Source of the DNA: Amoebophrya sp. A120
Taxonomy: Eukaryota > Protista > Dinoflagellata
Reading direction: 5' to 3'
Length of the DNA: 64,000 bases
Assembly: GCA_905178155.1 (NCBI GenBank)
Contig: CAJINV010000005.1
Span: forward strand, 3,713,253 to 3,777,252
The position numbers were made by a program, and so were the translations under genes. The notes under the pieces were generated by a model, which ran no database searches, was not told the DNA's origin, and saw only the letters and a list, made by a program, of their open reading frames with translations. Shown here in pieces: positions 6,001-51,300 of this stretch (positions within the stretch are counted from its first letter, which is position 1; each line of letters begins with the position of its first letter).

Positions 6001-9000
6001 GAAGCTGACAATGTTGAACGTCAGGGAGCCGATGTGACAAGGCCTGGTGAAGTGCGGCGGCAAATACGCTTTTGCCGTTTCGAAGACCCAGATGACGACG
6101 AAATTCGCAATCACAAACGTCGCCAAATAGCTCGCCTTTTCCGGTAAGAAATGCACTGCGGAATGAAAAATCTGCGGATTCGCATGCGGATCCACCAACC
6201 CCTCGACGTCTTCCGGCATCGGATCTGCAACTGTGACGATTCTCCGCGGTAACCCGTACAACAGTAGTAGTACATACAATAAAGCCACGACGATTGCGCA
6301 GAGCGTCCCAATCAAGTAAAACACCGCCTGCGACGCGAGCCGCTCCACCGAACCGAGTTGCCACATGTATGGATTGTAAAACTGTCTGGGTCTGGAAACT
6401 TGTGATGCCGGGTGGCGTATCATGAAGAGGCCACAAATGCTGGCTCAGCATGACAAGCTTTTGACCTTCTAGGTGTTGCCTACTCTGCATGACAAACTGC
6501 GTTTCTGCATGACAGCAAAAGGGGGATCTTGGGTAACGTGCGTGACAGATTTAAGAGTCATGCCAGACAAGCATGACAAATCTGGCAATCTTCCAGACCA
6601 AGACGTATTTGCATTTGATAACATGTTCAAGACGACAATACAACCGGAGCTGGTCCAGGGAATCCCGATGGACTGGTGGTCTCCCAAAACCTGAGAATGA
6701 ATCTCCCAGGTCGCGCACAAAGCCGTGAAAACGGTGATAGCGAGCGGTAACTTTGTGCCTTCCGACACATTCTGCAGCCAATGTGGGATAAATCGCTGGC
6801 TGCCTCGCTCGTGCCGCCAGGACGTAACGGAAGTTGTGTAGCTTGGTCCAGGAGCTCCAACATTTTTGTTCTTCCCGTGGTCCGAAGAAGCAGTACCACC
6901 ACCAGCCCCGCTTCCACCAGAATTTGGGTTTATTTTATCTTTCGCTCTCATCTGTTTCACGAGCTGCTGCACTGTGATTTTCGGTCTTTTCAGCAAGAGA
7001 CCACTACTTGATGCAAAGTAGCTGCTCTGTCTCGTTCGCCGTCCTGGCGCGGTTGTCGTAGTTCCGTTCATCTTGTTCCGTCTTTTGTCACAGCAGCTAC
7101 TGCAGCCGCGAAAGGAGAGCGAGTTTTGCGACGGTGCGGCCTCGGCCAGGACGAGTAAGGCTTTGGACTTCAGCAAATGGTTTTCCAAGTGTAGATCGTG
7201 CAACTCCTCGTCGTCCATCATTTTCTGTTCAATTTCCTCGTGATCGTCATCCTCCGGATCGACAAGTTTGCCCCGGATTGAGGAAGCGGTGGACTGGTGC
7301 GCCGGAAATAAATTCACCAAAGAAGAAGTCGGATGTGACAAATGGTGTGCCGTAGTCGGCGCACTGAGGACTTCTTGCATCGTGTTTTGACTGTTTGTTC
7401 CAGTTGTTAACGTTACCCCAGGCTGCACGAGCTGCGGGACTTCTAGCGCATGTGACGTTCCAAGTAGAGCACTGGCATCGGGGGCAATACTAGTGGCGAG
7501 ATGACGTCGCGTTGGTGTTGCAGAGTTGATGCTTTCAACGTAATTTGTTCCATATTGGCGTTGGACATTCGTGTTCTCGCCAGGAGAGCTGGCGGCGTTT
7601 GGTCGATAGTTTCCTGATAATTCAGTGGCCTGCTCTTTCGACGAAAAAATAAGCGCGGAAGGCGCTGGAGATGAGCCCGGCATATTTTCCAAGACTGTTG
7701 CTTTGCCCGTCTCGGCTCTCAAAGGAACGAGGGGCGGCTGCAAGTTCGATGCAAGAACTACAGGGGCGGAGAGAAGTCCGGGACCACCTGCTATACCTTC
7801 GCCAATCGTTGCGGCTGGCGCTTGGTAGCCCTGCTTGTTTTCTTCTCCACCGTTACGCCATCGTAACGGTGGCGTCCCGTTCCTTTCACATCCTGCTTCG
7901 TGATCATGATGTGAAACCCCTACTTCGGGTTCGTCTTTTCGCGATGAAGAAGACCGCACCAGTGGGGTTGACCGTAGAATGCTATCAGCTACCACGGAAT
8001 TTTCACTGTCGATCAATCCGAGGACTGCGAGGTGGGACTCATCGACGTTTCGTGCAGGTTCGATTCCCCCTTCGTACTGCGGGCCCGATGAAGATCCGCC
8101 TTCAATAAAAAGCTCGCCGCGGCAGCTTTTGAGCTCAGGTTGAAGTAGCCCAGAGCCAGCAGATCTCGTCCCCTTTTCTTTCTCTGCCGATGCCGAAAGA
8201 ACTTCTGGTTCTGTCCCCGACCTACTATCATACTCTTGAAACGTAAAGGCGCGACACATCGGGTCCTGTGCAGGGCTGCGCGTGCTTTGTTCGATGGCTG
8301 AGCTCTCATTTCCACGGCGCTGAGGTTGTTCCGCCGAATCAAGAGGCTTACTACCTCCTCGCTTGTCTCCGACATATTGTCCGGCCGAATTCCGACCAGG
8401 GGCAGCTTCATCTCCGGAAGGACTCAGAGAGAAGTTAGTCTGCTTTTGCTGCCGTTCCTGTGATCTAGTTTCTGATGCAAAGGAGGGTCCTCTGGACCTT
8501 CGGGGGTGAGGACCACCCGCCAGTTGTCTGCGAAACCGGTCCATGGAAGCCGCAGCGGCAGCATCGCCCTGCAGCCCGAATCCGGGCAACGACGTCATTT
8601 GCTGCGACTGCGTCGTTCCCCCGCTGCTGTTGAATAGGGAATCCGAGAGCCGCGGCCGGGATTTCTGGGCGTCGTTATAGTCATAGATGGACACTGTGTT
8701 CCGGTTTTCGTCTTCGTATTCATCGTTGTGGTCGCTCTGAAGATCCTGAACAACAGACGACTCCCGGGAAAGCGTGCTGCCCTTGCGGGAAGTAGATGAA
8801 AATTTAAACCTCACTCCGCTGGATGCGGTTCCACCCCCTGCGACGTTCTTCATCCGATCAAGCGTGCGTTGGTTATGTTGCGGCGTCGTGCTAGCACTAA
8901 TTGGCATTAGGTTTCCGGTCGCGGTGTCAAGCTCCTGCTCCCCGTAGTCGGCGTTGTTCACGACACCGCGGCGACGCGGCCCAGTGCTGTCGCCGCGATA

Positions 9001-12000
9001 TAGGCCTGAACGCCGACGCGCCGGCAAACCGACGAGAGAGCCAGTCCTATCGCGCCGACCTCTCATCCTGCTCAGGTGGCTGCTTGTATTGACGTTCGTA
9101 CTTGCTGGGTTATTACATTCCGCGCTGTCCACTCGAATAAGGCGTGATGTTGAGCTTGTTTCTGGACCAGCAGCACGCCGGTCATGATCATCGGTGTCTA
9201 AAATATCCAACTCAAACGACACATTTCTGCTGTTTTCTCTCGACGAGTAGGAAAAATTTTCGCCGTGGATCAGTTGCAATGGCAACAAATCTCCTTGTTC
9301 CATGTTTGTTTGGTCCTGATTATGATTCAGATTATCAGCGTCAGAGTCACTATAATTATCGGAGTCAACGTCATTGATTCCGTCCGAATGCGAATGCGAC
9401 GATCCCATGTTGCGGTCCTGGTCTGTGCTATCGACATGAAGGTCGCCTTATGAAATGTAAAAATGTCTGGGTCTGGGAGAATGCAAGTTTGTCATGCTTG
9501 TCTGGCATGACTCGGGAGTCTGTGTTGCATAGGCACGAAAAAGCCTTCTTACCTGTCACGCAAAAACGCAGTTTGCCATGCGGAATACGTAAGACATGGC
9601 AGCCAAAAAATTTGTCATGCATAGCTGCGTATTGCAGTGCGTCTATCATTCACTTTTAGCATTACAAGTTTCCAGACCCAGACATTTTTACATTTGATAC
9701 GCCTTCTCCTTCAAGACACACTCCACCGCCACCACGCTGAGTTCTTGTCCTATTCGTCGGGGTGTCAGGCGGCAAGGAAGACATGTCCACTTTCCCTACT
9801 ATCTTTCTACTGGTGTAGTTATCCGCAGCACTTCGGCGGCGCTGGACAGAACGGGAAGAAGTAGATGGTGCCACGGGGCCGGTTCCGGAGGATATATTTG
9901 AAGCACATAATTTCATCGCCGCAGCTGCAGCACCACCTCCACCTGACCTTGAGCTTTTGGACGAGCTGCAAAAATTTTGCAGGTTGTAAACACTTCGTTG
10001 ATTTTCATCCTGAGGTGGACCTCCGCCATCGTCGTCGTGGAATCTTGTTCGGTGGTGGTACACGCGGTCCTGAATGTTTGATTTGGAACTCGTCCGGGAA
10101 CCGCGAGTTAAAAATGTCGCTGACGTTTTGCCTTTCTGATAATTATTCTGGTGATCATGTTGTTCTTGAGACGAAGTGGTGTGCAGCGCCGGGGGCTTCG
10201 TATTAGCGCCTGCTTCCTGTTGATGGTGCGTAGAAGTAGATCCTCGTGACGCCGACCCACTTCTTGTTTTCAGAAGTGCACCGGTAATTGGATCGAACTG
10301 GTGGGCGACGGGGGCTCCTGACGGAACAATACCCGGAACAACTGCTCCCCCTTCGATGGACGTGGTCGCTCTCTGCCGTCGAATTATATCACCAACCTTC
10401 CGACGCGCTTTGCTGCTCCGCGAGGTCCGTTGCTGGCCGATCACTGCTCCGTACCCTACGGCGGAAGTGCTACTGCTAGCTGCTCCGCCCCCAATATTGA
10501 TCGTCGCTCTTGATCGTACCGGAGCGGGAGGAGCTCCTCTTGAGCCAGAATAAAGGCCGCCCTGGTGTGAATGATTTATGTGATCCTGCCTGCTGGTAGT
10601 GCTTTTCGGCAGCTTTTCCCTGGGTGACGGCTCGAACAAAGCCCCCAAGCCCGTCGAGCTGTGTGCCCCTTGAGAATTCTGCGGCCGCTTGATCTGCGAC
10701 AGAGCGAGCTGCCGTGTGTAGTGCCGTGGAATGGATAAGCAGTTTCGAAACAGTGCCTCCTGGTGGTCCACCTGTTCTCGCTCGCTAAAATACTGCGCAG
10801 GATCCGGCTGATGTGCAGGAGCTACAGGAACTGTTACTCCTGCGGCGCGATCCGTTGGACTGGCCAGGAAAAGAACAGGAGCTGCAGGTGTAGTAGAATT
10901 GTTTACACTGGTGACTCCGGCGGCTGCAGCCGTTTCTTGCTGTAGTAGTTGCGACGATTGAGCTCCTCCGGGACCAAGCTGCACACAACTTCCGCCAACA
11001 TTCGATGCGCTGAGCCGAGCCGCCGGGGCAGGTGGCCTACTGCTACTGCCCGAATAGGAATACGCAGCCCCGACCGCAGATGTTTCTTCCCCTGGCGCGG
11101 AGAGCTGCTTCTGCGTGGCTGCACCGGTGCAACCAACTTCTTCTGGCGGCGGCACCGGGGGCGCCGCAAGTCCGGAAATTGGTTGGTCCTCCGGTCCCCC
11201 TGTAGCTCGCAGCACCGACCTCTCCGCGGTTTTCGATCTCGGGGGGAAGGACACAGACGTTCCCTCCACGATTGGCACATTGCCTGAAGTCCTGCTCGTC
11301 CGCCGAGCTGGTGGCAGCTGTGCCAGAGGTGCCGCGCTGCCACTTGCAGCCCCGCCACCACCTCCGGGGCGACTGGTGGTTGTTGACGTTGATGTGTAGA
11401 ACAAATTCCCTGGCCCCGTGCTACTTGTCGCACCGCCTCCCGCTGTGATTGTTGTAGCCCGGAGATCATTGCTTTCATCATGACCCTTTGCACTACGAGC
11501 AGCTCCCGGCGCGGCGGCGCCGCGGGCCCCCGCATACTGGTTCTGCGGGCTGTGCTGTTGAAGATCATTTTTCCTATTCCCGCTTCTCTCTCCTGTTCTA
11601 ATAGATGATGAATTCGGGTCGTCAACAAGAACGACCGCACCTGTGCTAGCTGCTCCAGCTCCGTTTCTGCCGGGAATAGAGCTGCCCCTTCCACCGAGGC
11701 CGCCGCTGCCACTGCTCTCGAAGGCAGCACTGTTGTTCCAGCGCTGCCGTGCCAAGTCATCCTCTTGTGTTACCGAACGCCCACGCTGGCTAATATTCTG
11801 TGGCGCACCTCCAACAGCGTAGAAGGTCTGCGCTGCAGCTTGTGAAGATGAATCTAGCGACGATGCGGCGACTTGCTTCTCACCTCGAGGATGTTGGCCT
11901 CTACCAGTGCGTTCGACGTCGGAGTCGAAAGTTGCAGCCTCGTCTTGACCTCCGGCAGGCCCGGCCCTGGATGTTCCACTAAAAATCGGCTCGCTCTTAC

Positions 12001-13391: not shown

Positions 13392-16300
13392 CTATTGGAT
13401 GAAGCACATTCTGAGCCCGATCACGTGGCCCGCGAGCGCAATCGGAAGGGAGACCAAGGGGAACCACTCATAGGGCGGGAAGAAAAAAAACACTGCTGCA
13501 GGTTCGTTTTGGAAGAGTCGCAATCTGAACATGATTTATTCTTTCGCGCATAACTTTGATAATTTTCATTCAAGTATTTCATCTCTACCATTGCAGGATT
13601 CCATCACTTACAGTAGTTGACGTTGAGCACAATAGTATTCCACCAAACGAGGCACTTGAAATTCAAATTCGAATTCACGGCACAATAAGCATATCCGAGG
13701 AGTGACGATTTGTGAATCTTCTCCAACAAAAATTCGCAAAATATACGGTGTCGGCAGCGAGAACAGGATCGTGAAAATGACCGAAAAGAGTAACAGCAGC
13801 CCGATTACATTGAAGACAAACAGCACCACTTTCTGCTTGATGTGAAGCTGCGGAGCGATTGTTGATGCAGGTGATATTAGTGGCGCAGAATTTCTTTCCG
13901 GACTGCCAGTGACGTCCTCATCGCCGAAGAAAAATGAGGTCAGCGGTCTAGTAGTGCTTGCTTTATTTTTTCCCCCAGCACTCCCCAGTCCAAGCGCTGA
14001 CAAAATGGTAGTTCCTGCTGTAGAAACGAGAGACGAAATACTTGCAATTACGTCATGATCTGCTTCGCCGTTCTTGGTTGATGATGATGTTGTTGTGCCC
14101 CTGTCTGAGTAGAAGAAGAAGGAGTTCTGATTGGGATTGTGACAGGAAGACGCTGTGGTCGATACCACGTCATCCACGTCAGTTTGCGGATTTTCCTCTT
14201 CTTTCCGAGGGGATTTCTCGTCATCTGAGGAGCTACTCGACGTGGGGCCCATGTTTAAGCTCACCTGGAAGAAGTAGGAAATCGAAATGTTACTGATACC
14301 TAGTAAGTTGCGTTTTTCAAAAGGATGTCAACATCTCCATGTATTTCTCTACCTATATGGATATCTCCTGCCCGTCAGCATGAAAATGACCACAAGAGCG
14401 AAAGAAGTGAATTGTATTTGTATATCAGCTTGGCTCTACAACATTCACAATCGATACCGCGAAGGCGAGAATTCCGGTGATGATGTCAAAATTGTGTCCG
14501 TGGACCGTCATTTGCTGCGGAACAACCCCCTGATTGTGCCCGACGTGCAGCAAATACTCCAAAAACACCCGGAACACCTGGTAGCCCACGATCAAACTGG
14601 CGGGCACTTTCCGCGCAATCTGCTCGCCCCAGAACGAAAACCCAAAGAAGAAGACAATCGCGAGGCAGCCGAAAAACAGGAGCACAATGAAGACCGCGGG
14701 GAACGAGAGAAAGCAGGAGGTCAGAGCGTGGGTGAGCAGGAGCCAGGCTGCGATGCACCTGTTTAGTTGTTTCGAAAAAAGGTCATCTTGTGCCGGTTGG
14801 GGTTGTCACGTAGGGCCAATTAGTCTTGTTCAACAACAAGCAGTGAGCTCATCTTCATCATCTTCATGGTAGTTCATTTACTGGGCAAGGTGATGAAATT
14901 GAAATTGTAATTGTGATGAAACATGTATTTTGCATTTACTCATCCTACCAGTGCAGCGGGCGCTTGACTGTTTCGTCTGTGGCCCCCATGTGGCAGATGG
15001 ACACAAACGCGTAGACCGACACCGCAAACACGACGAGCATCGCCGCCATGTAGGCCCCGGAGGGTTCCGGCACGTGCGTTCCCGGAAACAGGGTGACCAC
15101 CCGTTTCGGCGGTACCTTCTCGCTGTTGAAATCCGGGAAGAAGTTGTTGACTTCCGCCTTGGGCTTGTCCTCCAGGATGATCGTCTGCTCGACCCGGTGC
15201 TTCTCGAGATTGCCGGGCACTTCCAGTGTCAGCGCCGGCGTGTGCGGATCTTCGTGGACCTCCACCCGGCCGAAGGCCTGGGGCTATTGCAAGGAAAAGT
15301 AGTCCCCCTTTCCCATATTGAAAGCGCATCCTACTGAAAATTTGCGATGCAGATTTGTGACCACAAATCGGGTCTGCCTTCCAAGAATGCACATTCAGGC
15401 TGTCGGCCACGTTATGCGGGCGATTTGTCATGCTGTAAGGCCTACAGAGTAGCCGGCTGCCATACCAAATATAGCCGCCGGGGCGGAGGTAGTGAGGTCG
15501 TGGGCGTTTTCTTGCCGGCCGTCGCCTTGGCCGCGGCTTTGCTTTTTCTGGGCCCGCCGTACCGCCGTGAGTAACGTTAGGCCGCACGGTATGGCGGCCG
15601 CTTGATAAACGTCGCAAATTTTCGCAAATTCCCGATATTCCTTTCCGAAAGCCAGCCCCCATGCTATGAGGCCGATCCGGGTGCCACGGGGGGCGCCCAA
15701 AAAGCGAAGAAAAATCGGGCCCGTAGCATGCGGATTGGCTTTGCGCGTCTGGCGCGCTTTTGCTTTTTTGCGTTTTTATTTTTCCCGTCGGCGCTTTTTG
15801 CAAAGCCCCCCAGGCTCTGAAACCGGCGAAAATGCGGCCGCTTTCGCGGCCGCCCAAAATGCTCCGAAACCGCGGCCGTGCCATGCTGTTTCGCTGTTCT
15901 GATTTTGGGTGCGTTGTTTTCGGGCGCCCTTTTGGGCGTCCTAAACCGCCAGAAATCAAGGCGGCGGGCGCCCCAGAAGGGCGCCCCTTTTGCTGGCTTC
16001 TCTGCGTCGTTTTACCCAGCGGCGATCGATAGAATCCGCTGGCGATTCGGTGCCAGGTAAGCCAAACAGGCTTGCACGCTGGGATCTTTTTCATGCAAAA
16101 AAACTCTCTACAGGCTTCAAAACTGCCGGTCGTTTTTCAGGGGAGATGGCAAAAAAACTCCCCGGTTAGAACCGTTCGGTGACCTCACTACATACTAGGC
16201 GCCTAGTATACCAAAAGGCCCCCGCCAAAGCCAGGACCACGCATTCCTCGTCTAGCTGCAACACAAGTTTGATTTGTCTATCCAAATCCAGCATCAGAAG

Positions 16301-16756
16301 TTTCGTTTTGATATGGGGAGGGTGGATTTTTCCTTTTGATAGGGGCCCGAAGTCCACCAGGGAAGGCGGATTCAAAATGCTGGAGAAGACGTTGGAAATC
16401 TTGGTGCCAATGGCTACTTCACCGCCTGTTTCCGTTTCCTCGGCGAGGACCACAGAAGCGGGAGCTTCATTTGAAGTTGTGCTTTCTCTCGCAGCTGCCA
16501 ATGATGCTTCTTCTTTAGCCGTGGTTTTCATCTCTGCCAAGGAGGACGCCGCTCCTGCTGCTCCTGCTGTAGTACCTGCTCGTACTCCCCCGGTAGTCGC
16601 ATGAGCACTGGTCGACGCCCCGCCCAGGCTCAGAAAGGCTGACGCCTGAGACGAGTCGCTGCCAGAGCCGCCCATTTGCAGCATGATGTCAAACGGAGCC
16701 AGATCCGCTGCCGTTGACCCGCCCAGCAGGCCGACTACCTCCTGCATTTTTACCAT
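13392..16756 (-). CDS. Multi-exon polytopic membrane protein resembling a bacterial-type hypothetical membrane family, with low-complexity N-terminal extension
   Basis: Exons ~16756-16314, 15278-~14949, ~14758-14440, 14264-~13700, ~13480-13392. Motifs LIVGYQVFRVFLEYLLH, PQQMTVHGHNFDIITG, FNVIGLLLL..SLPTP, PYEWFP..ALAGHVI. The last junction is unresolved. Confidence 0.7.
15284..16313. mobile_element. Degenerate introner (ends TATTG.../...TTTGATA, direct repeat TGGGG) enlarged by a nested ~732-bp repeat
   Basis: TGGGG at 15279-15283 and 16314-16318; removing 1035 nt joins IHPP|QAFGRVEV in frame; motif TTTGTCATGC near 15424. Confidence 0.65.
15463..16194 (-). mobile_element. Non-autonomous Helitron2/Helentron-like repeat, copy 1
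   Basis: Collinear with 31558-32297; 11-bp asymmetric inverted repeat GTAGTGAGGTC (15489-15499) / GACCTCACTAC (16181-16191); hairpin CCGCC-GG-GGCGG (15475-15486) outside the IR; no TSD seen. Confidence 0.7.
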
Positions 16757-23986: not shown

Positions 23987-27546
<3,560 letters not shown>

Positions 27547-32660: not shown

Positions 32661-32663
32661 TGG

Positions 32664-34352
32664 TTAGTAGTTGGTCCAATTGTTACTCTCTTCTCGTTCT
32701 GCACGTGTTAGCGGACGCGGCGTTCTCCACCAAACCACCTGGTGCCCAGCGACGACATTCGGATTCGATGGGCTCCCGCTTGTGGGCACCCGCGCAGCGC
32801 TTTCATCTGATCCCACGACATTGACACGATCGTCATCGAAATCATGCTCGATGTCTTGGATCTGACTGTTTGGGTCCTCCGTCGCCTCGCCCTCCTCCTC
32901 GGGCCTCGGATTACGGCCACGACACAAACGGCTAAGCATTCCACGACCAGGAACATAGTCCCTCCATCCTCTAGCGGTCGTGAACGTAGTTTCTAGCATG
33001 CTTGCTGTGGTTGCACCGGCCAAACCGGCAGTGCCGTTGCTCGTGCCGCCATCGCGCTCTTCGAAGAGCTGCTTTTCGTGCTGCGGTCGGCCGTGGTGCC
33101 CCTCCTCCTGCGGGTCCTTGCGCGTACTGTTGTACACGTACACCACAACCTCGGCCGGGGTCAGTTTGGCATCCCCATTCGCATCCACCCCGCGCGGCGG
33201 GGCCGGACACTCCGTTTTATCCAGCACATGGTTCTTGTCCGTGTCCAGCGCGCTGAACTCCGCGATTATCTCGGCGACGATGGACTCCAGCTCCGCGAAC
33301 ATCCCGGAAGTGCTACTTTCCGCCGCAGCCACTGATCCGGCAGGAAGACCAAACAACGGGATCGAGTCAACCAGCTGCCGCATCATCAGGCGAGTCAAGT
33401 CTTTGGACACCTGATACGAATGGTTTTTAATTTGGATTTTTCAATGTGAAGTTTCACGTTACAAACACAAACAGGCTTAATAGATCAGGCTTGAATTTAC
33501 AGTTAGTTTATTGCTGCTGTCACTTGACCACCCCAACTGCAGTTCCTCCTCCTACAACGAACGCAAGAACATCTTTTTATTTATTTAGGTTCTTACAACT
33601 TCTAAGAGTAGAACTCGTCGCCTATTATACCCGATCAATGTTGTCCATTTCCAATTTCGCGTTCAGTTCGAAAAATTCCGCGCGGACGCGTTGGCGGACC
33701 GCGTCGTCCAGTCGGTCCTGCGCCTTCAAGCGGGTACCCTTATCAAATGCAAAAGTGTCTGGGTCTGGAAACTTGTGATGCTGGGGGGCGTCTCATAATG
33801 AGGCCACAAGTGCTGGCTCAGCATGACAAGTTTCTGAGCTTCTAGGTGTTGCCTATTCTGCATGACAAAGACAAACTGCGTTTCTGCATCACAGAAAAAT
33901 GGAGCTCTTGGGTAACGTGCATGACAGATTTAAGAGTCATGCCAGAGAAGCATGACAAACATGCATTCTTCCAGACCCAGACATTTTTACATTTGATAAC
34001 CCTCGTTGAGGAGCAACATGTTCGTCAACGTCGCCAGCTCGGTGTCTTCCTCCTTCGCAACCCCAACCGTCGTTGTCTCCTCCAAAAAAGACGTGCTTGA
34101 GAAGGGGTTCGTGTCAGTGGAAGGCACGGGAGAAAAGGAAGCGGTAGTGGAGGTTGCGGTTGGGTCGTTTTGGTCTTCGAGTTCGTACGTTTGCTTCAGC
34201 TGCGCTATGGAATGGAAAGCTGTTGCTGCACGACCTTTCGTGCCATACCCATATGCGGGAAAAAAAAAGCTTCGTGGTTGTGGAGATGCCGTTACCTTGT
34301 TCCGCGACAAAGAGGCAAGGAGAAGGTAGAGAAAAAGAGCAGTTGAGAGCAT
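32664..34352 (-). CDS. EF-hand-containing hypothetical protein, possibly secreted; start uncertain
   Basis: EF-hand-like loops DTDKNHVLDKTE and DANGDAKLTPAE; exons joined across a family A element (LNEG|TRLKAQD) and a probable GT-AG intron (IDR|VSKDL); hydrophobic MLSTALFLYLLLA start. Confidence 0.6.
33741..33998. mobile_element. TIR introner, family A; direct repeat ACCCT
   Basis: 30-bp TIRs; ACCCT at 33736-33740 and 33999-34003; interior alignable to 6368-6620; removing 263 nt gives an open frame. Confidence 0.93.
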
Positions 34353-34839
34353 GATGTACTCAGTACTGCTTGCATAATGTCCGACATGGGCATGGCAAGT
34401 TACGCTTGCAAGACGATATGGGCATGGCATAGTTACTGCAATCATCTTTCCGCATGATATGCGCCATCAGTGCTGCTTTGTCCTGCGAAAGGGCCTTTAC
34501 CTGTTATGTCATCGAAGAAAAAAGTGTTTTTCAAAAATGTAGTTGCATCCGAGTTTTGTTTGTGATGCACGATCGAGAGGCAGCACGAGGACGACGTACT
34601 AGAGTTTTGGCTTTTATTTGGCACGAAAATCATTTACCGACGCCCTCCTGTAACACTACATCACGAGTCCAGTTCGTCGTATCATACCTGCTCCTGTAGG
34701 CTCAAAATCATCGCGTCGGAGTGCTTCGTGTCAAGACTTGCGCTACTGGCTGCTCCGGTATGGAAAAGCCAAAGAAACTGTCCTCAGAGGCACAAACTAC
34801 GGACTGCAGGCATAATTTTCCGTATAGAGTACGTGAAGT

Positions 34840-35488
34840 CTATGAAAAGGTAGGTACAACACTCGTGGTCGAAGACAAACGTCCAATCCCAGCGTTTGCG
34901 AACGCGCGGAGTGTCACTAGAAGATCACTCCACGATCTGTAACACGACCAGGAAGATGGCTTTGGTCGTTTCTTTCGCTTTCCATACGTCTTAACTTTCG
35001 ATGGATTCTGCATAGCCGCAGAGGAGTCGATCGTCACCATCTCGTCCGGCGACTATCCTATGTCAAATCTTCACCCTCGAGGATCATCAAGTTGCGATAA
35101 AAAACGCATTAAGTAACTATTTTATGCAGAAAGCTGGTTCTTGCTGCCAATTACAGATCTACGCATAAAATTGTAATTGAATGCGAGCAGGAAGGTCTAT
35201 ACAAAAAAAAAATTGCACATAGGATAGCTCATCGGAAAACTGGTCGATGGCGGTGGCGACCCCGAATGCCCCCAGAACCAAGGTAAGACAGGTCATTACG
35301 TACGCGGAAAGGATGCACGTATGGAGCCAAAAATCAAAGGGACTTGACAGACCCGCTTTCGTTTTCAGTGTTCTTGTCGGACCACTTTTCAACAACATTG
35401 CGGCACTTGTGCAAGGACTCTGTCCCAGCGCCGTCCCCGTGGTCCTCCCGCGGTCGATTTTGCTGCGCCGCGTGCGGAGCAGCGACAT
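34840..35488 (-). CDS. Small hypothetical membrane protein, 2 predicted exons
   Basis: Hydrophobic stretch FWLHTCILSAYVMTCLTLVLGAFGVA; ORFs 35159-35521 and 34840-35040 join in frame across an IR element. Confidence 0.4.
35054..35226. mobile_element. Degenerate introner, family D ends (TATCCTATGT)
   Basis: IR tatcctatgtcaaat / attgcacataggata; removing 178 nt keeps the frame (GA-AG possible); same terminus as the element at 41807. Confidence 0.65.
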
Positions 35489-36481: not shown

Positions 36482-37892
36482 TCAGTCTTCCTTTACTTCC
36501 CCGATAGGCAGGTGGCCACAGTGATTCTCGATGGCCATACACACATCGTTAAACAGGTGCTCCACAACTAGATAGCCTTCCACGTCGAAGTAGCGGCTGA
36601 CGCACTCGGCGTTGACGGTGGGCTCCGTGTTCCGGGAACCCCGCACGTCGATGATCAGTTCCGAGGTGTTTTCTTCCATTCCGATCGAACCAGTATGCCA
36701 AGAAAGGTGCTGGTTGCGGGGGTTGTTTGAATCAAGTCGAAAAGTTCGTCTTTTTTGCAGAACAAGTACTAGTACACGTAAGCGGCCTCCTTATTTTCGT
36801 GCTGAACAACATGACCGACATCAAACAAAGCATCTCGCACAGACCAGAACAAGACCATGCGATCGCCTCGTGGGCCCTTGATGCATTCAAGATTTTTGTT
36901 AAAAACATGTACTTGCAGCACAAATAGGAGCTTCTTGTACTTGATGATCCTTATCCTTTGGATTTCTTGCAGCGACGTAGATCTAGATGTATAGACACAT
37001 TCTTTCATGTTGAGCATGACATCAACATGTTATGAGCTTGCCGCCGATGAGCTTCATCACATGTCGAAACCTTAAGTTTCGTTCTGAATTAGACTTGATG
37101 CAAAAGAACTCCCTCACGCCCACCATTGTTGCCGGGATCATAAACGTGCACCGAGTGGTTGTCAAAGTCCCGCAAGGAGTAGACGTTTGCCGGCCCGAGC
37201 GCCCACATGTCGATGTAAGTGACAATCGCTGCGATGAGGGTATACAACAGTACGAACGGCAGCAACGTGTCTTTGTCCTGCGGGAATTTCAGCCGCACCA
37301 CGGTATAGGTGCCCAGGGCGCAGGCCAGGACGGAGCAGAACAGACGGATGTCCAGCCAGTAGGTGCACTCCTCAAAACCGGCATCCTGCATGATATCCTG
37401 CAGCATATCGCAGACGCACTTGTGGTGGTTATGCAATGCAAATTTTGCACCGCTGCACACTCGTACAAGAAAACGCATAGACAAAATCAAAAAAGGCACA
37501 GCACATTCCTTGCCATACTCAAACAATAGGTTGCATCAAAAAGACTTTCGTCATGCTGAAACAGCAACATCTGTACGTTGCGTGCGGCGAGAGCACTACA
37601 TTCATTGTGGATAGCAGTCGGGTTTGGAGTAGAGCGCCGCGGTTCGGTTGATATCCGGACTGTCCGCGACGATGTCGCGCACCATGTCATCGGAAAAGTA
37701 CTGCGAATAGTAGTCCACAGAAGCACCTCCCTTGGTCCCGCTCGACTGTTTGTGGGTTTTCTGGTCATGCTGCTTGTTTTTCTTGTTTTTCCCCTTGTTC
37801 ACCTGTTGCAGCTCGATCTCGCCGCCGTGGTGGTCCCCATTGTTGGAGGTGGAACCCCCCTTGTTCTTGTTGCCATTGTTCTTCTTTCCCAT
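36482..37892 (-). CDS. SPCS2: Signal peptidase complex subunit 2 (SPC25/SPCS2)-like
   Basis: GFEE..WLDIRL..LAC, KFP..LLPFVLLY two-TM pattern and C-terminal VSRYFDVEGYL; three predicted exons, second junction uncertain. Confidence 0.7.
37430..37613. mobile_element. Degenerate introner in the SPCS2-like gene; direct repeat GTGGT/GCAGT
   Basis: Ends TATGCAATG / CATTGTGGATA; internal TTTCGTCATGC; removing 189 nt gives KPDC|HKCVCD in frame. Confidence 0.65.
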
Positions 37893-39438: not shown

Positions 39439-42400
39439 TCAGAAGGAGAAGCCACCACCAGACTGCAGTTTCCATTCTTTACATTTCGAAAGAAAGCTAT
39501 GCGTCACTTTCAACATTCTTGACTCACAAAAAATCAATTCCCCTTCCATACAGACTTCCAAATAGAACTGCGAGTCGCTCCCCCCCGCCGGGTCGCCGGA
39601 CAAACGGTCCAAGTAGCTGATTTTCGTGCGCGGCTCCTTCACGGTGTACGCCCAAATGTCCGAGGAACTGAACGGCCGCAGACTGAGCGGCGGCACCGCG
39701 GCACTCGACGCTGCACCAGCGCCACCCGTAGTTGCGGCCGCCCCGCCACCAGCTGCCGCAGCACTCGCCCCCGCGTTCAACTGCGCGATGGTCTTTTCAA
39801 AAAAACCCAAACTGGGTCCCGTGTGGCGCAGGTTCAGCCGCCCGCGCTCGGCCTCCGCGAGCAGGAGACCCGCCCCGGCCTCGCCAAACTGGTTGCCTTC
39901 GAGGTCTAGGGTGAGAAAATGCTGGTCCCTTGCGCGGCCCTTGTCGCGGATAGCGGCGGCGAGTTCCAGGAGTTCTTGCTGCGTCACAATGCCATTCTGC
40001 CGCAGGGAGACGGTGTGCAAACTGTCATTAATTATTTCGATCCATAGATTGTTTTGACGCTACAATTTTTCCTCCTCGGCTTAGAAATTCAAATGAACAT
40101 AACCATGTATGCTTACTTTCACGCATCTCGGGTACAGATGAACGTCGAGAAATCTATAATATGCAATGGCGTTCATCTTCATCTGAAGTATTTCATCCGA
40201 TTCCGAATCCGAGAAAAAATGAGACTACGGCGGTTCATAATACGAATTGCTGCATCATTTATACACTGAATTGGGATTTTTCGCGAAGTGTCGGGCGATG
40301 TGCGTCCCCGCGCCCGCGCAACAGTTGTCGGAGAAGTCCAAGACCTCCAACACCGTCGGCTCCTCTCCGGCAAGCATGTTCATGAGACTCTGTACCCCCA
40401 CCGCAGAGATGGCGTTGCTGCCCAGCAGCAGTGCGCGCAGCGCCGGACTGGTCGCCTGCACGCCTCCCCGCGCTTCCCACTCCGCCAGGCAGGTGTCGGT
40501 GAGGCAGTTGCCGGTGAGGTCCAGGTACTCCAGCGTTTTCGTGGCCAATATGACCTGCAGGGCGCCCTTGTCAAAGCACTTCACGTTTCGCAGCGACAAA
40601 AACCGCAGGCTGTCTGTATCAGAGTAGAAAACTTCCCCCCCATGTGTCATGCTTAACCGACTTTTATTCCTTTTGGCACCTTTATTCATCCATGACAGAT
40701 TTCGGAAGGGGCCCAACCTACAGTACTGCAGCTCGCGCACGATGAATCCGTCATGCACAGAGTGCAGGTGTGCAGCTCGTGCCGGCGCTTTTACTTTTAG
40801 TTCAACTGCTGTCCATGGCATATACATGCGAAGGAAGGGAGCGACGAGTTGTGCACTCTGATAGGTCGGGGTCTGCATTTCGGACACAAACCGGTGGATC
40901 GCCTGCACCGGGTCTTTCAGTTTGCCGTGCAACACCAGGTATTCGCACAGGGAGGCGTAGAGAAAGCAGGTGTTCGACGACATGGCATCACTTTCCCAGT
41001 CGACGACTGTTTTCTCGTCCGCTTTTCGCGGGAGAAACAAGTACTCCACGCCAAACACCTTGCGCTTGTTCCGTTCCAGCGCCATCTGCTGCTCGCCGGT
41101 GGCGTCGTACCCTGCCAACTCGCTGAAAATTCGCCGCTCCTCCTTCGGTTTTTTGGAGCTCGAGCTGCTGCCCCCGACCGACGCGGTCCCGGCGCCCCCC
41201 GCGGAGCCCCCGAGTTTCTGGTTGATACCGGACTGCGCGACCGAGGGGGTTTGCGGTTTGCTGCCGTTTGTGGGGGAAGCGTTGCTGGCGTCTTGCTGCT
41301 GCTCCGCCACGCTCGCCGGCATCATGGTGCCGTCGGACTGCGCGGGCTTCTCGCTCAGCCCGCCCTTGGATTTCAGCTTTTGAACGAAGAACTTCTGGCC
41401 ACGAGGGTTTTGCCGGACGTACCGGACCAAAACCTCCTGCTCCGCGGGACCGAGCGTCGGCAGGGACTTTTTTCTCTTCGAGGGGGAGGACGGGTACTGG
41501 TATGCAATTGTCGTCGTCGCAACCGTCTTGTCCGAACTGGAGGCGAAAATGCTGTCCTTTTCGTCCGCGTCGGAACCGTCGGCACTGTTTCGGACCCGCA
41601 CGGCCCCGCCCTTCCCGTCCGTTTCCGCGGAAAACAAACTTGGTTCCGGCTCGCTCATGTACGGGCTGGCGAAGTACTGCACTTTGATCTTCGCCTTCTT
41701 CTCGATGGCGATCTGCAGCGTCTCCAGCACCCGCCACGCGTGGGCGGAGGTGAGGGTGATTTGCGACAGGTCCCAGACGGAGTTCGTCATCAGCCGGGGC
41801 ATCGCGTATCCTATGTAAAAACGTCCCAAGCTCCAAGGTCAAGATGGCGAATCGGCTAGACAAATCCACAAGTTTTGGCTGTCTTCCATGACAAATTTGG
41901 ACTCGTAGTGTAGTGCTGTTTGAGCTACCTCAGCAGCATCGCAGATCTCGTATATCATGCTGATTGGAGCATGACAAATTGCAAAACACGAATAGAAAAT
42001 GCTTCTCATGGGGCTCCGCATGAGAAACATTTTCAGCATGCAGATTTGCATTACAACTATGGGGTCGTGGGAACGTTTTTAAATACGATATCGCGTAGAA
42101 CTGGTTTTCCACGAAATTCGTGTCCACCCGCCGCTGGAAACGCTCCGCCATGTCTGCGAGGGAGACGAAGCCTCGGTCGTGCTCGAGGTGAAGGAGAAAG
42201 GGGACGATCTGGATTTTTTTTTCGCAATTTTCTTTATCTTTATTCGCATGCTTGAAAAATCTTGCACTACTACAAGAACGCAAAAAAAAAAAATCGCAAA
42301 TTTTCTCTTAAAGTTCGACGATAACAGGGATAGGGAAAAATAAGATGAAGTCATCAACAAAAAAGCAAAGTGAATGAAATACCTCGTCCAGCATAGAGAA

Positions 42401-44584
42401 ATGGGATTCCGCAGCGTACGTGTCTTTCGTCATCACTGCCTGCGCCAGCGCATATCTCAACCCCCGAATCGTTACGCCGTCCTCTGGTAAACCGAACTCC
42501 ACCCACTTGCGCCACCAGTCATAGAAATAAGCATAGCTGCCATTCAACCCGATCCCGTTCCGGAAAATCACCTTGTGCAACCTCCCTGATTTGCCCTTCT
42601 TCGGCGTTTTTGCAGACGCGCCGCCAGCTCTGGATGGCGAAGAGGAACCCCCTCTCGACGGACTCGGCGAAGCCGACTTGCTTTTCTTCTTTTTTTTCGC
42701 CGATGAGGGGGAAGTATTGTTGTTATTTCCGTCCTCATCGTCTTCTCCGGGTGGAGGCGGGGCGATTACCAGCTCTTCCTGCTCCATACTGGCGTAGTCC
42801 TGTTCGAGCTGGTTGATCCGTTCCTCCAAATTTGCCGTTTCCAACCCGACCGACTCGATCCGAGAAACCACGTCCTTGGCCAAGACCGTGTCACCACCAG
42901 AAAGTTTTTTCGGAGACGAAACGAGGTAAATGTCGGGCGAGGCCGAAGAGGCGTAGTTTTGCCCGGTACCTGTAGTATTCTTCGTCTCGTCGTCGTTCCC
43001 AAAAACATCAACGGTTGTCTCTTCCGCGCTCGTCACCGGTATCTCGGGCAGCAAGTACGCTTTCGCGCCCACACACTTCCTTGACGGGGACGAAAAATCC
43101 ACTTCCTTTTCCTCGCCCGCAAAGAGTGTTGAGTCTGGTTTCCGCGGTGCTGGCGCTTGCTCCGGCGTCACTGCCTCCAGCAGCTTCACCAGCAAGCGGC
43201 CCAACGCCCACCGCTGCGCCTTCGCGAGCGTCTTCTTGTCCTTCGGCGGAGCGTCGTCGTCTAGAGCGGTCGTGCCCGTGGGGGAAGAAATTTGGTTGTT
43301 TGGTTCGTCGTCCCCTTGTTCACCCCCTGCCTTCATGGTTGAACTGTTGAACATTTCCGGTGCGCGTTTTTTCGCCTGCGAGCGGATGATTTCTGGGACG
43401 AGGAAGTGCCCGAGCTCGCGGATTTTGTAGAGCTGGACGTCCACCCACCGCATCTGGCCCTTATCGAACAGCTCGGGCAATCCGAACTGCTTAAAAAACA
43501 ACGGCAGTTTCGACAGAAACAGCTGCGGGAGCTGTACCTTGTACTGCTTCCGGCACACCGCGGACAAGTACAAGTTTTCGCACTCCAAGAATGTCACTTG
43601 CAGTTTGTGCTCTCGGTAGTGGTTCATCCCCAAGCGGCGCTGCGGGTGCTGCGGGTCCACGTTATCCTCGTCCGTGAAGTTTCTCGCCTTCGCCTGCAGC
43701 ATATGACAGTGCACAACTCCCCCTCCCCCTCATTTGTCATGTAAAATCCCAAATCCAGGCACTGCCTTGTGGCACTGTTTGCATGACAAATTTCGCACCC
43801 TCAAACAGTACTACAATCCGGGGGCTGAAGATTTGTCATGCGGAAGCCACATTTCTGGCGTTGCTTGTGTTGCTGCTCATGCCATTCAAATGAGGGGGAG
43901 GGGGAGTTGTGCACTCTCATACAGCAGGTTCCCCTCGTTGTCCTCGCTGTAGTTGCCCCTGCAGAGCCAGATGTTCTCGGGCCGGAGGTCCAGCATGCAG
44001 AACCCCTTCGCCTCGAGTTCGAGAATGGCATCAAAAACCGCGTGCACGATCTGCACCAGCCGGAACGCGGACAGCTGCTGCCCGCGGCTCCCGGGGGGCC
44101 CCTCCATCTCCCGGGCGAGCGTGCGCGCGCCGGGGGGCAGGGCCTTGTAGATCGCGACGAGAAGGTTGTTGTCCTGAAGCGCGACGTGCTCCAGCGTCGG
44201 CAAGGCGCGCAAGCCGGACAGACTGCGGAGCACGTAAAATTCCCGCATTGTCAACTCCGCATCGACGGGGTTGACCTGTGGGGATTTGTAAGGTGTAGAA
44301 GTGCTGCAATATTCACCGTGCATTTGACGCTCACACAGAATTCTTGCTCAATGTCAGTCATTCGTAAAATAAAACTGTACCCAGATAAATCGAAGCCATT
44401 TTCGCTCGCCGCTATACACGTCGACCGTTTCTAATATGGCGTGCCGGTGCGGAAACGCGGTGACGACGTTTTTCACCAGGAACCGCCCGTCGTAGGTTTT
44501 GTACTGCACGGAGTTGCAAAATTTCTCGTAGTCCCGCGTCTCCGAGAAGGTTTTCACTGCCAGAAGAATCTCCGAAGCTGCCAT
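39439..44584 (-). CDS. Large multi-exon protein with a degenerate kinase-like N-terminal segment and C-terminal RNI-like leucine-rich repeats; 3' end uncertain
   Basis: MLDLRPENI (catalytic-loop-like); LRRs LEYLDLTGNCL, LRALLLGSNAI, LEVLDFSDNC, LHTVSLRQNGI, LTLDLEGNQFG; the ORFs join in frame across three TIR elements and GT-AG introns. Confidence 0.75.
40617..40863. mobile_element. Family B introner hidden in frame and stop-free inside ORF 40255-41829
   Basis: TIR tatcagagtagaaaact / agttgtgcactctgata; three CATGAC-type motifs; 247+5 = 252 nt = 84 codons; weak direct repeat GTCTG/GGTCG. Confidence 0.72.
41807..42090. mobile_element. TIR introner, family D; direct repeat TCGCG
   Basis: TIR tatcctatgtaaaaacgt / acgtttttaaatacgata; perfect TCGCG at 41802-41806 and 42091-42095; removing 289 nt gives NQFYA|MPRL. 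Confidence 0.9.
43702..43921. mobile_element. TIR introner, family B; direct repeat CAGCA
   Basis: ~35-bp near-perfect TIRs TATGA(C/G)AGTGCACAACTCCCCCTCCCCCTCATTTG; perfect CAGCA; removing 225 nt gives GNLL|QAKAR. Confidence 0.93.
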
Positions 44585-45427
44585 GATTGCGCTGATTTTT
44601 CCTTGCTGGTTGTGGCTGAGTAGACTGGAGGCGTGAATTTCGTGTATGAACTTAATGTATGGCAGCTTTTCGAAGTAGTTCTCGGAAAATAAGTATTGAA
44701 AATGAACAACCTAGTCAACTAACAGCTTGGGCCTCCAGCTGTTGTACCCGTACGGAGGAGCAACAATCCGCCCCACTGCACGCCTCCGGTCCTCCACGCG
44801 CGACGAGGAAAGACTTCGAAAGAAAAGAGGGCAGCGAAGGGCGAAGAGCTGACACTCTCACGATTTGTAGTTTCCCTCTCGCTCTCGTTTTTGGTGGGTA
44901 CCGTCGAGTCTCCTTCGAGGTTCGCTCAAAGTTAGGACTTCTAGGGTACCTAGTCGCGAACGAAGAGGACAAAGCGAAAAAAGTAAAACCAGGTTGAGCG
45001 ACAAAAATTCCAAAAGAAAAAACACGTTTATCCTTGATGTGGGCGCGCCAAGTCTGTGTCTGCCACTCAGCACGAGCCCATGACCAGAATCTCGCTCTAA
45101 CACTGAAGCACATGGCTGCAGGTCGTCGCGTCATGTCATGCCAAGAAAAAAATCAAAAAAATTACAATGAATTGCAGTCACTCACGGTGAGCGGTTCCCA
45201 ATTGGCATCATGTTGAATGCAGCTCGTCCGCGGCACGTTAACGTTACCATATCAGCTGCACAAAAGACCTCGAATAGAGCAGGCGCTCATTCTTCGCTTG
45301 AAGTTTTACGTGGAAAAGAGGAAAGCAACCAACTCACTCTAGCGATGCCGATCCAAAAAATATAAGTTCCTACTTTTAGGCCTTTTAACGATCTAAAAAA
45401 GATTGATTTTGATGTTTATTTTTTGCA

Positions 45428-48307: not shown

Positions 48308-51300
48308 TCAAAACTCCGGCCAATCGTACCAAATACGTTTGGACCCATCACCGTACTCCTCGCTGAACAAGTCCCAGCTTCCGCACGGCCACGCCAAAAA
48401 TTTTGTCTTCTTCGCCGAGTTTACTTCCGCTTGTTCCCCCGCCACGAAGTCCATCCGCTCCCCCGCATCCGCATCCAACAACGACAGGCAGCTATTCACG
48501 ATGGCGGTGTTCCGGGCCTGTATTCAAAGGAAATTTCCTGCACGCGCACAACTTTGAACGCGTCTTCTGCATGACAGAGAGTTTCTTTAATTCTATTCAG
48601 CATGGCAAGCGATGCGCTCCAGGGGTGCTCTAGATTTGTCACGCATTTTGCACGTGTGCAGGAAGTTTGTACTTATTGCATAACCTGGATCGGCAAGCCA
48701 CACAAACTCGCCCCACATTCGGTTATCTCACAGACCCATAGCTCCGGCTCCTTCATCGTCTCCTTGTTCCAGACCACATGGTAATCAAACCGCCCGTTGC
48801 TGGGACAGTTCAACTCCGGCCACTCACTGTGGTACCAGGTGAGCCACTTCCGCGTCAATTCCTTCGCCTGCTCCTCCATCTTGGCTTGAAGGATTCCGTC
48901 ACCACCCCAAATCGCTTCCAACGCCTGCTTCGGGGTCTGGTTGATGTGTCCCGTCATATCCAACCCCGCGTTGTTCACGTTCGACTCGATCCCCATGTAG
49001 GCGACCTTCATGTCAAAATCCCCGTTTCGCGTCAGGTCCATTTCCTTTTGGACGTTGTAGAAGTTGTGTTCCGCACAGTTTGAGATTTCCGCCGCGTCGT
49101 AGCCTGAAAGCTTAAATAAATGCTCCATGTCGCGTATCTGGTCCCGCAACTCTTGGATCTGTGCGTCAATGGAATTTACTTGTTTTTTTTTGTAGATGTC
49201 AAATACTTACAAAAGTTAAAAAGCTCATTTTACTCTGCTACTTTTTCAGAATTCATTGTATACGGAGTTCGCGTTTTTCGGAGCTCCTGGGTATTCGTAT
49301 TCATAAAGCAAATCACTAACGACCGCTGAGTCAAGGAAGACAGCAAATGTACGAAAACTATTGATCTTTACCTTTTTCTCTCCTGTCGAATAACTTTCCA
49401 TAACCGTGCCATCATCTTCTGCTGGCACCATCACGACATCGTCCTTTCCGATGTTCACTGCAACAGCATCCCGAGTCAACAGCTTTTCGTTTTCCTTCTC
49501 CAACACATCCAACTTCCGCTTCACGTCCACCAACGGCTTCTCCAACCTCTTCATCTCCCGCCGCTGCACAAAATCCGTCGGAACCACCGCGCGACTTTCC
49601 TTCGGCACCCCGAACGCGTGGATCCGCAGTTCCGCGATGCGGTCCGGCACCAACTCCTGCACGATCACCGACGTCGCAATCTGGCCCTTGTGGCAGCAGA
49701 TCATGGATTCCAACTTTTTCGCCAAATCCTCCGCCCCGTGCCACACTTTGACGTCTACGCCCATCCAGGAAAAACCGAGTTTCACCACACCGGACATCAT
49801 TTGGCTTTCTTCTTTGGTCGTTCCTTGGACAGCCTCGTCGTCAGGAGGAGGTAGGGGACTGTCGTGGGCTTGTTGGACGAGGATCTGCTCCCCTGCATCA
49901 CCCGCGGCACCCGAGTTGGTCGAGGCGGGGGATTCATCACTGGTTGTACTGTCAGAGTTCAGAGTGACGACCGGCTCCAGCTGCTTCACTAGAGAAATAC
50001 AACCCTTCTTGTAGCTCATCTTCTTCGCCTGATCTACTTCACCAACCAGCGGAACACTCGGCACTATCGGTTCATTTCCCCAGACGTTCTTCCGGATCAT
50101 TCGCAGTGCGTTGATGGCGTTTTTCGCGGCCTTCAGACTGTCCTTCTTGATACTGGTCGCGTACACCCGGGTGGTCGCCGGGGTTTTCAATTCCCGATTC
50201 TGGCACCCCGCGTTGTAGTACTGTTTCCCACACAGTTGCCGGTACAAATGCGAGGGCGCCGGGTACCGGGTATGAATCTCCGTGTTCTCCATTTGCCGCA
50301 TGAACTCGAAAAACACGGACTCCTTCACCATCCCAGCGTCACTTTTCGGGTGCCGGTTTTCCGGACCGAACTCCCGCTCCGCCGGCCACAAGTAGTACAG
50401 CCCGCACTTCGCCTTCCCGACGAGCAGATCAGCGAAGGGTCGACGCTTGCTGCAGCTCTTGGTCGTAGTGGAAGATGGATCATGCTGGTCAAGAACATGC
50501 TCCTGCAGCTGCGCCAGCTGCTGCATCTTCACGACGCTTGTTTGATGTAGTTGCTCCACCTTCTTCTTCTCCTCCGGCAAATGCAAAACGTGCTGTTGCA
50601 CGAAACTCGTCAAACACTCTTCGTCGAAGCAGAACAGTTCGTAACATTCAAAGCGATTCCCCACCGCCGCCTTCACCCCGGCCTGCTCGATCAACGAGTA
50701 AACCGGCCACTCCTGGGTGATTTTGTACTCGGACTTTCGCTTGTCAGACCAGTAATCGAACCAACGCAGGATGAACAGGCTGAGATCGATCTTGTTTTCC
50801 ACAGGAGCCAGTTGTTGCTTCTCGTCAACACGGATTTTGTTTCCGTCTTTCTCGGCTTTCCCGTTCAGGAGTTGCTGGTGGTCGACATCAACCATCTCAA
50901 CCTCGGTGGTCCCCGTTAATTCCACGGACTGCAACAGCTCGACATTCACCTGAAGGAGTGGGGGATACTAATAGATGCTATACGCATCTTGGTTGACACA
51001 CAACAGTCACTCACTGGCGTTTTTATTTGCCATCAAAAAGAAAAACAAAAAGCATATTGCAATCATGTTGAACAAAAGTTCTTTGGTATAAGAGACTAAA
51101 TTTGTGCAACACTATCTAGTACCTTATCGTACACCCGATACTGGAACTTTTCATCCACGTAGCCCGATCCCGCCTCCACGAAGCAATACTTTTCCGCCGG
51201 GACCACGACTAAACCCTTGACCACAGAGTCCGGAATCTCCGTGTTGCGCTCGTAGAGAAAGTCGACCACCTTGCCCTCAACCCAGCCGTGCGCGAGGCCC

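Follow-up and report, generated by a model that had tools for sequence, protein, structure and literature searches.

A shared internal motif of Amoebophrya introners is a likely binding site for a protein that mobilises them

Why does one short word recur inside terminal inverted repeat (TIR) elements of Amoebophrya sp. A120 that differ in their ends and interiors? The window analysed here, a stretch of 64,000 bases, contains 25 exact copies of GCATGACA on its two strands, compared with a mean of 2.5 and a maximum of 6 in 100 dinucleotide shuffles. The first-pass annotation had listed 18 of these sites, all of which are real (those given at 9612, 15425, 28591 and 43833 are off by 1, with the ninth base included); the additional sites are at 29373, 33860, 33919, 33950, 37014, 40645 and 45134. 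The A or G that had been noticed after the word is present at 21 of the 25. The 22 TIR elements of the window, delimited by their own ends or by RNA joints, cover 6,593 of the 64,000 bases (10%) and hold 24 of the 25 exact sites (binomial p 5e-23), with at least one exact site in 13 of the 22. The word had also been described as rare in the long exons, and no exact copy turned up in four canonical introns or in the 9,431 nt of exon whose limits are set by RNA contigs. The lone exact site outside any element (45134..45141, minus strand), at the RNA-contig end of the 45428-46765 gene, is probably due to chance.

The same enrichment is seen in an independent sample of 479,450 non-redundant bases from a related assembly (loci L001-L133), in which 603 motif sites fall in 101,226 element bases versus 199 in the other 378,224 bases; with all element-like sequence masked, the densities are 6.0 sites per kb in elements and 0.14 per kb elsewhere. 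In a de novo search for 8-mers across 383 elements of this assembly, GCATGACA ranked top, occurring in 17 of 21 multi-copy families, and GCATCACA occurred in 15 of 21. As the motif is absent from only 10 of the 383 strict-TIR elements there, the evidence for spliced introns without it comes mainly from the window. Lack of enrichment, or confinement to a single alignable family, had been named in advance as outcomes that would speak against a common signal; the enrichment is strong, and the motif spans nine lineages with unalignable interiors (17 family consensuses, aligned with the motif masked).

The host elements are Amoebophrya introners of the type published for A120 (TAT..ATA ends, 5-bp duplication): they are non-canonical introns removed from RNA, occur in many genomic copies and have direct repeats of 3-5 nt at their junctions. 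The portions of Farhat et al. 2021 (PMC7789003) and Gozashti et al. 2025 (PMC12130899) covered here likewise describe non-canonical introns that fall into many families, with TIRs starting TAT, an A-run end and junctions marked by short direct repeats, as well as co-oriented genes, but no internal motif, fixed spacing or cross-family signal. Inverted repeats that start with TAT and contain a conserved A run are present in the elements described here, and the motif-bearing families have in common TAT-[C/G]...AAAA ends and the 5-bp duplication, which is exact in 289 of the 383 elements of the related assembly (6 or 7 bp in none). The element finder required TAT, but of the 13 RNA-defined elements of the window, 11 carry it at each end and another at a single end, while the last has GTA. 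Among the RNA joints listed, all drawn from contigs of one sample, 13 of 15 are non-canonical TIR elements, and the splice cuts fall 4 and 1 nt outside the TAT..ATA ends. In the raw RNA run X9 there were only 201 partial reads, almost all of them on a single TIR, and an Rfam scan of the window gave no match. Summed DNA contig depth of the elements reaches thousands of times the single-copy level.

The motif-bearing elements of the window, given here without strand, range from densely occupied to vestigial. The element at 6368..6620, with family A ends and a 5-bp duplication, carries exact motifs at 6448, 6487, 6507 and 6571 (all plus strand) and two variants, the sites lying 34 and 81 from the left end and 43 and 74 from the right. 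A family A element in the opposite orientation (9449..9699; 9490 and 9613, minus) and two high-copy members of this family follow, at 28365..28689 (28405 and 28592, minus; 28640, plus; removed from RNA at 28359-28688) and 33741..33998 (33821, 33860, 33919 and 33950, plus, with two variants; removed at 33736-33998). The other high-copy elements are those at 30409..30622, with a different TIR (30551, plus, with two variants; removed at 30404-30622), 41807..42090 (41969, plus; junction 41801-42089, inferred from RNA piece lengths) and 43702..43921 (43781, plus; 43834, minus; an RNA piece ends at 43696). Exact sites are also carried by the low-copy element at 29272..29538 (29373, plus; 29434, minus; removed at 29267-29538), the element at 40617..40863 (40645, minus, with two variants; junction inferred from RNA contig piece lengths) and a short diverged element at 48521..48682 (48569, plus, with two variants). 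The 311-bp element at 15285..16341 (duplication GGGGC; motif 15426, minus; sites 44 and 77 from the right end) is interrupted by a second element of 741 bp nested within it (15470..16210, duplication CCAAA), which belongs to a different family poor in motifs and is 82% identical to 31565-32297. Old elements comprise 28796..28968 (left end decayed; 28910, minus; removed at 28791-28968), 36694..37142 (37014, plus; removed at 36688-37141), 34206..34459 (two variant sites, GCATGGCA, spaced by 32 bp; removed at 34201-34459) and 37430..37613 (vestigial sites, with a 7-mer at 37550; removed at 37425-37613), and a diverged family-A-like element at 25311..25620 has no more than a variant site (GCATCACA, near 25563).

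The motif is asymmetric; GCATGACA, its most frequent form, corresponds to AYYTGTNATGC on the opposite strand. The first-pass annotation had proposed that a near-palindromic TCATG/CATGA core would work in either orientation; this does not hold, as the base that varies freely is the C of TCATG (C 0.64, G 0.24, A 0.12), the motif is not a palindrome and its orientation relative to the element ends is fixed. Motif columns have an identity of 0.93 and the remaining interior columns 0.84, with the motif higher in 17 of 17 families (p 1.5e-5), while the free middle base evolves as fast as other interior bases. In 10 families, parsimony changes per site relative to the other interior are 0.49 on terminal and 0.23 on internal branches (ratios biased by a tree built from non-motif columns), with the middle base unconstrained. 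The terminal constraint fits rounds of transposition that were not sampled, but also selection after insertion. RNA structure was considered as the source of the constraint and rejected: predicted folds contain motif-to-motif pairing, but the middle base shows no covariation. In 53 of 99 copies, a left site and its symmetric counterpart on the right have different middle bases (TIR arm positions differ in 689 of 3,830), so that the motif is not maintained by pairing.

These observations bear out the proposal of a common cis-signal, conserved across families whose interiors cannot be aligned. The description of those families as unrelated goes too far, given that the motif-bearing families follow one end grammar and some interiors do align, such as those of the elements at 41807 and 43702, which have different TIRs. 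This common end grammar and the alignable interiors are what could be expected if the motif had simply been inherited from a common ancestor and had no function; its survival where flanking sequence is unalignable and a change rate of a quarter to half that of neighbouring bases make such passive descent very improbable.

The position of the motif relative to the ends, for which a check had been suggested, proved to be regular. Elements carry 3 to 6 copies at fixed distances inside their ends, and the first inward site, scored at 26 ends, lies at 33-34 bp (8 ends), 41-45 bp (15) or 53-56 bp (3), with none between; the best period of these distances is 10.5, a phasing that, as the families are related, rests on few independent shifts (rough estimate p 0.004-0.06). 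Direct pairs 30-33 bp apart number 27 in the 17 consensuses, against a null mean of 3.9 and a maximum of 11 in 2000 trials, and inverted pairs 44-49 bp apart number 11 versus 1.9 under the null. Conservation above the interior, together with set positions and orientation inside the ends, gives the motif two features of a subterminal binding-site array. We favour, with a probability of about 0.6, the reading in which the motif, carried by one group of miniature TIR elements, is not a splicing signal but a predicted site at which their mobilising protein binds DNA. Of the two roles suggested by the first-pass annotation, a transposase subterminal site fits as a prediction, and a recognition site for the removal machinery is not supported.

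The case against the latter comes from introns that lack the motif. Among the joints listed, 4 of the 13 RNA-supported non-canonical introns show no trace of it: two TAT..ATA elements (30006..30327, removed at 30001-30327, and 34759..34986, removed at 34755-34987), a long-palindrome element with GTA..TAC ends (32458..32686, removed at 32453-32686) and an element whose ends start like those of the 41807 family (35054..35226, removed at 35049-35226). Their best matrix scores are 3.0 or less (shuffle p 0.59-0.82), and they are joined out in RNA contigs, on the same contigs as the joints of motif-bearing introns. The motif is hence not present in all removed introns and is not required for splicing. 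That it nevertheless acts in RNA, as an enhancer or as an snRNA or protein site for the intron-removal machinery, is an alternative that we regard as improbable. It would account for the confinement of the motif to intron elements, for the constraint that persists on terminal branches, and for a mild bias that a pure DNA model does not predict: in coding insertions the direct-pair end comes first in RNA in 96 cases versus 60 (p 0.005), and RNA-sense UGUCAUGC outnumbers GCAUGACA by 276 to 210. An alternative machine might also be expected, given that U1 was undetected in A25 or A120 according to the part of Farhat et al. 2021 (PMC7789003) covered here. However, each family with sufficient copies has many elements in either orientation, motif retention is alike in coding and non-coding insertions (267 vs 53, p 0.54, in a low-power test), and the distances step by about 10.5 bp. 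Moreover, excision of TIR transposons from mRNA triggered by a hairpin has a precedent in SOS splicing, as described in the portion covered of bioRxiv 10.1101/2025.02.14.638102, which, like the nonconventional introns of euglenids (reviewed in PMC11282704), resembles the present case in the removal of TIR elements from mRNA with non-canonical ends joined by pairing. Both are systems of removal, a step that does not need the motif in the present elements.

Under the mobilisation reading, the protein would bind several sites on one face of the helix, as suggested by the end distances of 33-34, 41-45 and 53-56 bp, by direct pairs separated by three turns and by inverted pairs at 44-49 bp, and the bound protein would place a DDE catalytic domain of the integrase type at the terminal TAT. 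One enzyme could then move all families while the TIR spacer drifts into many, and removal from RNA would depend on the terminal hairpin alone. Multi-site ends are familiar from Mu and Tn7. The subterminal motifs of MITEs and DNA transposons such as Lemi1/Emigrant likewise consist of a short asymmetric word repeated inside the ends, in set orientation and more conserved than the other interior bases, and binding of transposase to such subterminal repeats was demonstrated in the part of that study covered here (PMC1636448). In comparison with the subterminal motifs of MITEs and DNA transposons, a single word is used here across families with diverged TIR spacers, its binding being predicted from sequence, and the elements double as precisely removed introns.

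The mobilising protein is likely of the integrase type. TA..TA termini as in IS3EU/GingerRoot (PMC10045372, PMC6839031) are present in the window elements, but the duplication there is usually 6 bp, compared with the 5 bp found here in 289 of 383 elements; IS481EU termini (TNT..AYA) resemble the TAT..ATA ends, but with duplications of ~4, 15 or 25 bp. In the Gozashti 2025 Dataset (PMC12130899), in the part covered, row fam38 lists an A120 family as Ginger with '5-bp TSD, TA/TA Termini'. Neither the window nor the 479 kb of loci, a very small sample of the genome, yielded a transposase or an autonomous element, and Farhat et al. 2021 (PMC7789003), in the sections covered, report no transposase and no family-specific signal in A120 and argue against general mobilisation by a transposase. 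A 6.2-kb TIR pair in L042 that had looked autonomous consists of two short elements in opposite orientation, and long family members in L013, L015, L044, L045 and L074 contain unrelated inserts with ORFs of at most 150 codons. Viral (5 and 17 loci) and prokaryotic (35 loci) matches were treated as chance, as no TIR with a 5-bp duplication was present at any of the 57 loci.

The reported lack of a transposase would suit two further alternatives. In the first, which has a low probability in our estimate, a DNA-binding or chromatin protein of the host occupies the array and aids mobility or tolerance (by bending, silencing or read-through), while the catalytic enzyme reads the terminal bases only. 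The array geometry suits any protein that binds double-stranded DNA, and the terminal box is only weakly motif-like (mean score -13.9 vs -20.5 shuffled); nevertheless, motif density outside elements is close to background (0.14 per kb; 1 of 25 sites in the window), with no sign of a host regulon. In the second, the elements would move via the excised RNA, and a retroelement machine, whose integrase makes the 5-bp duplication, would use the motif for packaging or recognition. LTR retrotransposons are reported in A120 (the part covered of Farhat et al. 2021, PMC7789003), and the TA..TA ends, the duplication and the mild RNA-strand bias would all be in line with this route, but the element ends differ from the splice cuts and the sites lie on both strands in DNA-helix steps, which makes it rather remote.

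A broader proposal, which we put forward tentatively and consider unlikely in its full extent, is that a single unrecognised protein moves thousands of introner families by reading the internal motif, with its helical phasing, instead of the TIR sequence, so that the TIR drifts and is held by splicing only to keep its pairing; a DNA code for mobility would then coexist with an RNA hairpin for removal in a genome without a detected transposase. The motif was not found in the literature covered, namely the Farhat 2021 supplement, in part, and 12 of the 14 supplementary files of Gozashti 2025. A shared phased motif would unite many families in one mobilisation system, which bears on the spread of the tens of thousands of non-canonical introns in Amoebophrya. 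With the array as a defined DNA bait the protein could be isolated, and with the array as a query the autonomous element could be sought; once the signals for mobility and for removal are told apart, what is left of the splicing question is the terminal hairpin with its 4+1 cut.

If the array drives mobility, copies in which it is intact would keep amplifying, whereas inserted copies would lose it with age. The 733/741-bp family, repeated with only one variant site (as in the element at 31565..32297, removed from RNA at 31561-32298), counts against array-driven mobility. Duplication mismatch, used as an age proxy, gave a weak trend, and a relaxed search for old introns yielded 8 candidates with 0-4 sites each versus 0-3 per decoy, too few to weigh. 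High-depth elements of the window carry more sites than near-single-copy ones (7 vs 9 elements, p 0.013), and the sites at 41886 and ~43735-43742, decayed in the window copies at 41807 and 43702 (the latter at 43735), are intact in nearly all other copies in the DNA contigs.

The exact motif GCATGACA occurs 25 times in the window, against a mean of 2.5 and a maximum of 6 in shuffled sequence. Twenty-four of these sites fall within 22 short TIR transposon-like elements spanning 6,593 bases (p = 5e-23), which we delimited by their ends and RNA joints, independently of the motif. Every site listed in the first-pass annotation exists, although four were shifted by one base and seven further sites had been overlooked; the scarcity in exons noted there holds, with no exact site in 9,431 nt of RNA-delimited exon. 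The canonical introns of the window (n = 4) likewise contain no exact site.

The window elements match the transposon-like introns (introners) of A120-type Amoebophrya, in which the inverted repeats begin with TAT and finish in an A run (Farhat 2021, PMC7789003). The host introns are already published; neither the motif nor its spacing turned up in the passages and supplement text covered. RNA-contig-covered genes are transcribed from the minus strand, and contigs from a single sample give at least 15 joints at 28.0-37.6 kb; among 15 listed, 13 correspond to TIR elements and two to canonical introns. Every non-canonical joint excises the element plus 5 nt, and all 12 TAT-type elements (28359-37613) agree with a cut 4 nt beyond one end and 1 nt beyond the other. 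In the RNA sense, the stagger lies 1 nt before the 5' side of the hairpin and 4 nt after its 3' side (12/12), and the joints at 31561 and 34755 allow no other register of a staggered cut.

For an independent sample, we used at least 133 loci on JACKZZ01 contigs, from a related assembly, retrieved with one TIR pattern; these have element families but not unique sequence in common with the window. Their 479,450 bases (overlaps removed) yielded 383 elements in 21 multi-copy families and 43 singletons, a sample skewed to family A and to well-paired TIRs; shuffled sequence gave about 0.4 false calls per 100 kb. Exact sites number 6.0 per kb in element-like DNA versus 0.14 per kb elsewhere, and an unseeded word count placed GCATGACA first (17/21 multi-copy families) and GCATCACA second (15/21). 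By eye, about 13 elements lie within 6.7 kb of coding DNA at L042:1900-8600. Inserts that terminate in a run of A or in (ATC)n, resembling non-LTR retrotransposon insertions, occur in elements at L013:632-1465, L015:5078-5534 and L045:8960-9455. Among prokaryotic matches, three Calothrix loci (L165, L172, L185) carry 31-32-bp tandem repeats with GCATGACA in cyanobacterial intergenic DNA; neither TIR nor duplication was found in these repeats, which we take to be unrelated.

A matrix of 83 sites, seeded from one-mismatch matches, gives A-Y-Y-T-G-T-N-A-T-G-C, in which N is C (0.64), G (0.24) or A (0.12). Column conservation is 0.93 in the motif versus 0.84 in other interior positions and higher in 17/17 families, with some added bias because columns were picked by consensus match. 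In trees built for 10 families, motif positions evolve at 0.49 of the interior rate on terminal branches and 0.23 on internal branches, and the middle base is free of constraint. Therefore, the near-palindrome TCATG, previously proposed as the core, is not the conserved feature. The middle base differs between symmetric left and right sites in 53/99 copies, whereas only 18% of TIR arm positions differ, a contrast that favors reading by a protein over base pairing.

Once the motifs were masked and the ends trimmed, the 17 consensuses fell into nine lineages without mutual alignment, so the motif is not limited to a single alignable family. However, the families are not simply unrelated, as first described: they have in common the ends TAT-[C/G]-N(4-6)-AAAA and a target duplication (exactly 5 bp in 289/383 elements), and some interiors align, namely those of window elements 41807 and 43702, which have unlike TIRs (z = 7.4, motif masked), and those of families F5/F6 with F13 and F14. 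The overall view is of a single superfamily whose TIR spacer drifts. In the consensuses, TIR arms are paired over positions 1-3 and again starting near position 9, often with mismatches at 4-8; the spacer contains in most families a short tandem doublet of about 6 bp, or 15 bp in F7 and F14.

Across 26 consensus ends, the first inward site, TGTNATGC, lies 33-34 (8), 41-45 (15) or 53-56 (3) bp from the end, with a best period of 10.5. In family consensuses, direct pairs spaced 30-33 bp number 27 versus 3.9 under the null, and inverted pairs spaced 44-49 bp number 11 versus 1.9 expected; window elements repeat the consensus positions (34, 41-43, 73-74, 80-81). Helical phasing is suggestive (our estimate, p 0.004-0.06), resting on few independent shifts because the families are related.

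We consider it probable (roughly 0.6) that the array serves as a double-stranded DNA binding site for a mobilising protein, which would set an integrase-type catalytic domain at the terminal TAT; binding, protein and protein class are all predicted. Subterminal arrays are a known kind, of which this motif is a new instance, and a transposase is known to bind the subterminal repeats of a MITE cooperatively (PMC1636448). IS3EU/GingerRoot elements have TA..TA ends, as here, but usually a 6-bp rather than 5-bp duplication (PMC10045372, PMC6839031). A supplement row of Gozashti et al. 2025 (PMC12130899) places one A120 family under Ginger, with TA/TA termini and a duplication of 5 bp, whereas the main text describes it as without Ginger homology or the expected termini. 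No autonomous element was found in the window or the 479,450 bases of related-assembly loci. The array makes the mobilisation question open to direct test.

Of the two cis-signal readings first offered, transposase site or removal signal, the former gains from copy number and decay. Summed DNA depth, a rough guide only, reaches thousands of times the single-copy level in six window elements, with a lesser excess at element 32458 and about single-copy level in nine others; sites are more numerous in high-depth elements than in those near single-copy depth (p = 0.013). Sites 41886 and 43742 are decayed in the window copies and intact in nearly all DNA contigs compared, and RNA piece ends indicate that the elements with decayed sites still appear removed. 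That the motif instead serves intron removal seems improbable, since 4/13 RNA-supported non-canonical introns bear no motif trace and yet are excised at equal total offset. Motif retention is equal in coding and non-coding insertions (267 versus 53, p = 0.54). In animals, a hairpin is known to trigger excision from mRNA (bioRxiv 10.1101/2025.02.14.638102). Against the mobility reading stand the lead of the direct-pair end in RNA (96 versus 60, p = 0.005), the constraint persisting on terminal branches, and the fact that only 10/383 strict related-assembly elements are motif-free.

Elements 15470-16210 and 31565-32297 form one motif-poor repeated family (740 bp; 733/741) with a single variant site and its own inner repeat, GTAGTGAGGTC, close to both ends, which fits group-specific mobilisers. 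The first copy is nested inside another element; in the second, the right end is 16 bp shorter, yet the copy is still spliced. A separate superfamily may be represented by motif-free long-palindrome elements whose ends are of another type (window 32458-32686 and L027:1949-2275). Finally, window positions 17000-18850 have 62-64% GC and long overlapping ORFs on both strands; the flanking genes differ.
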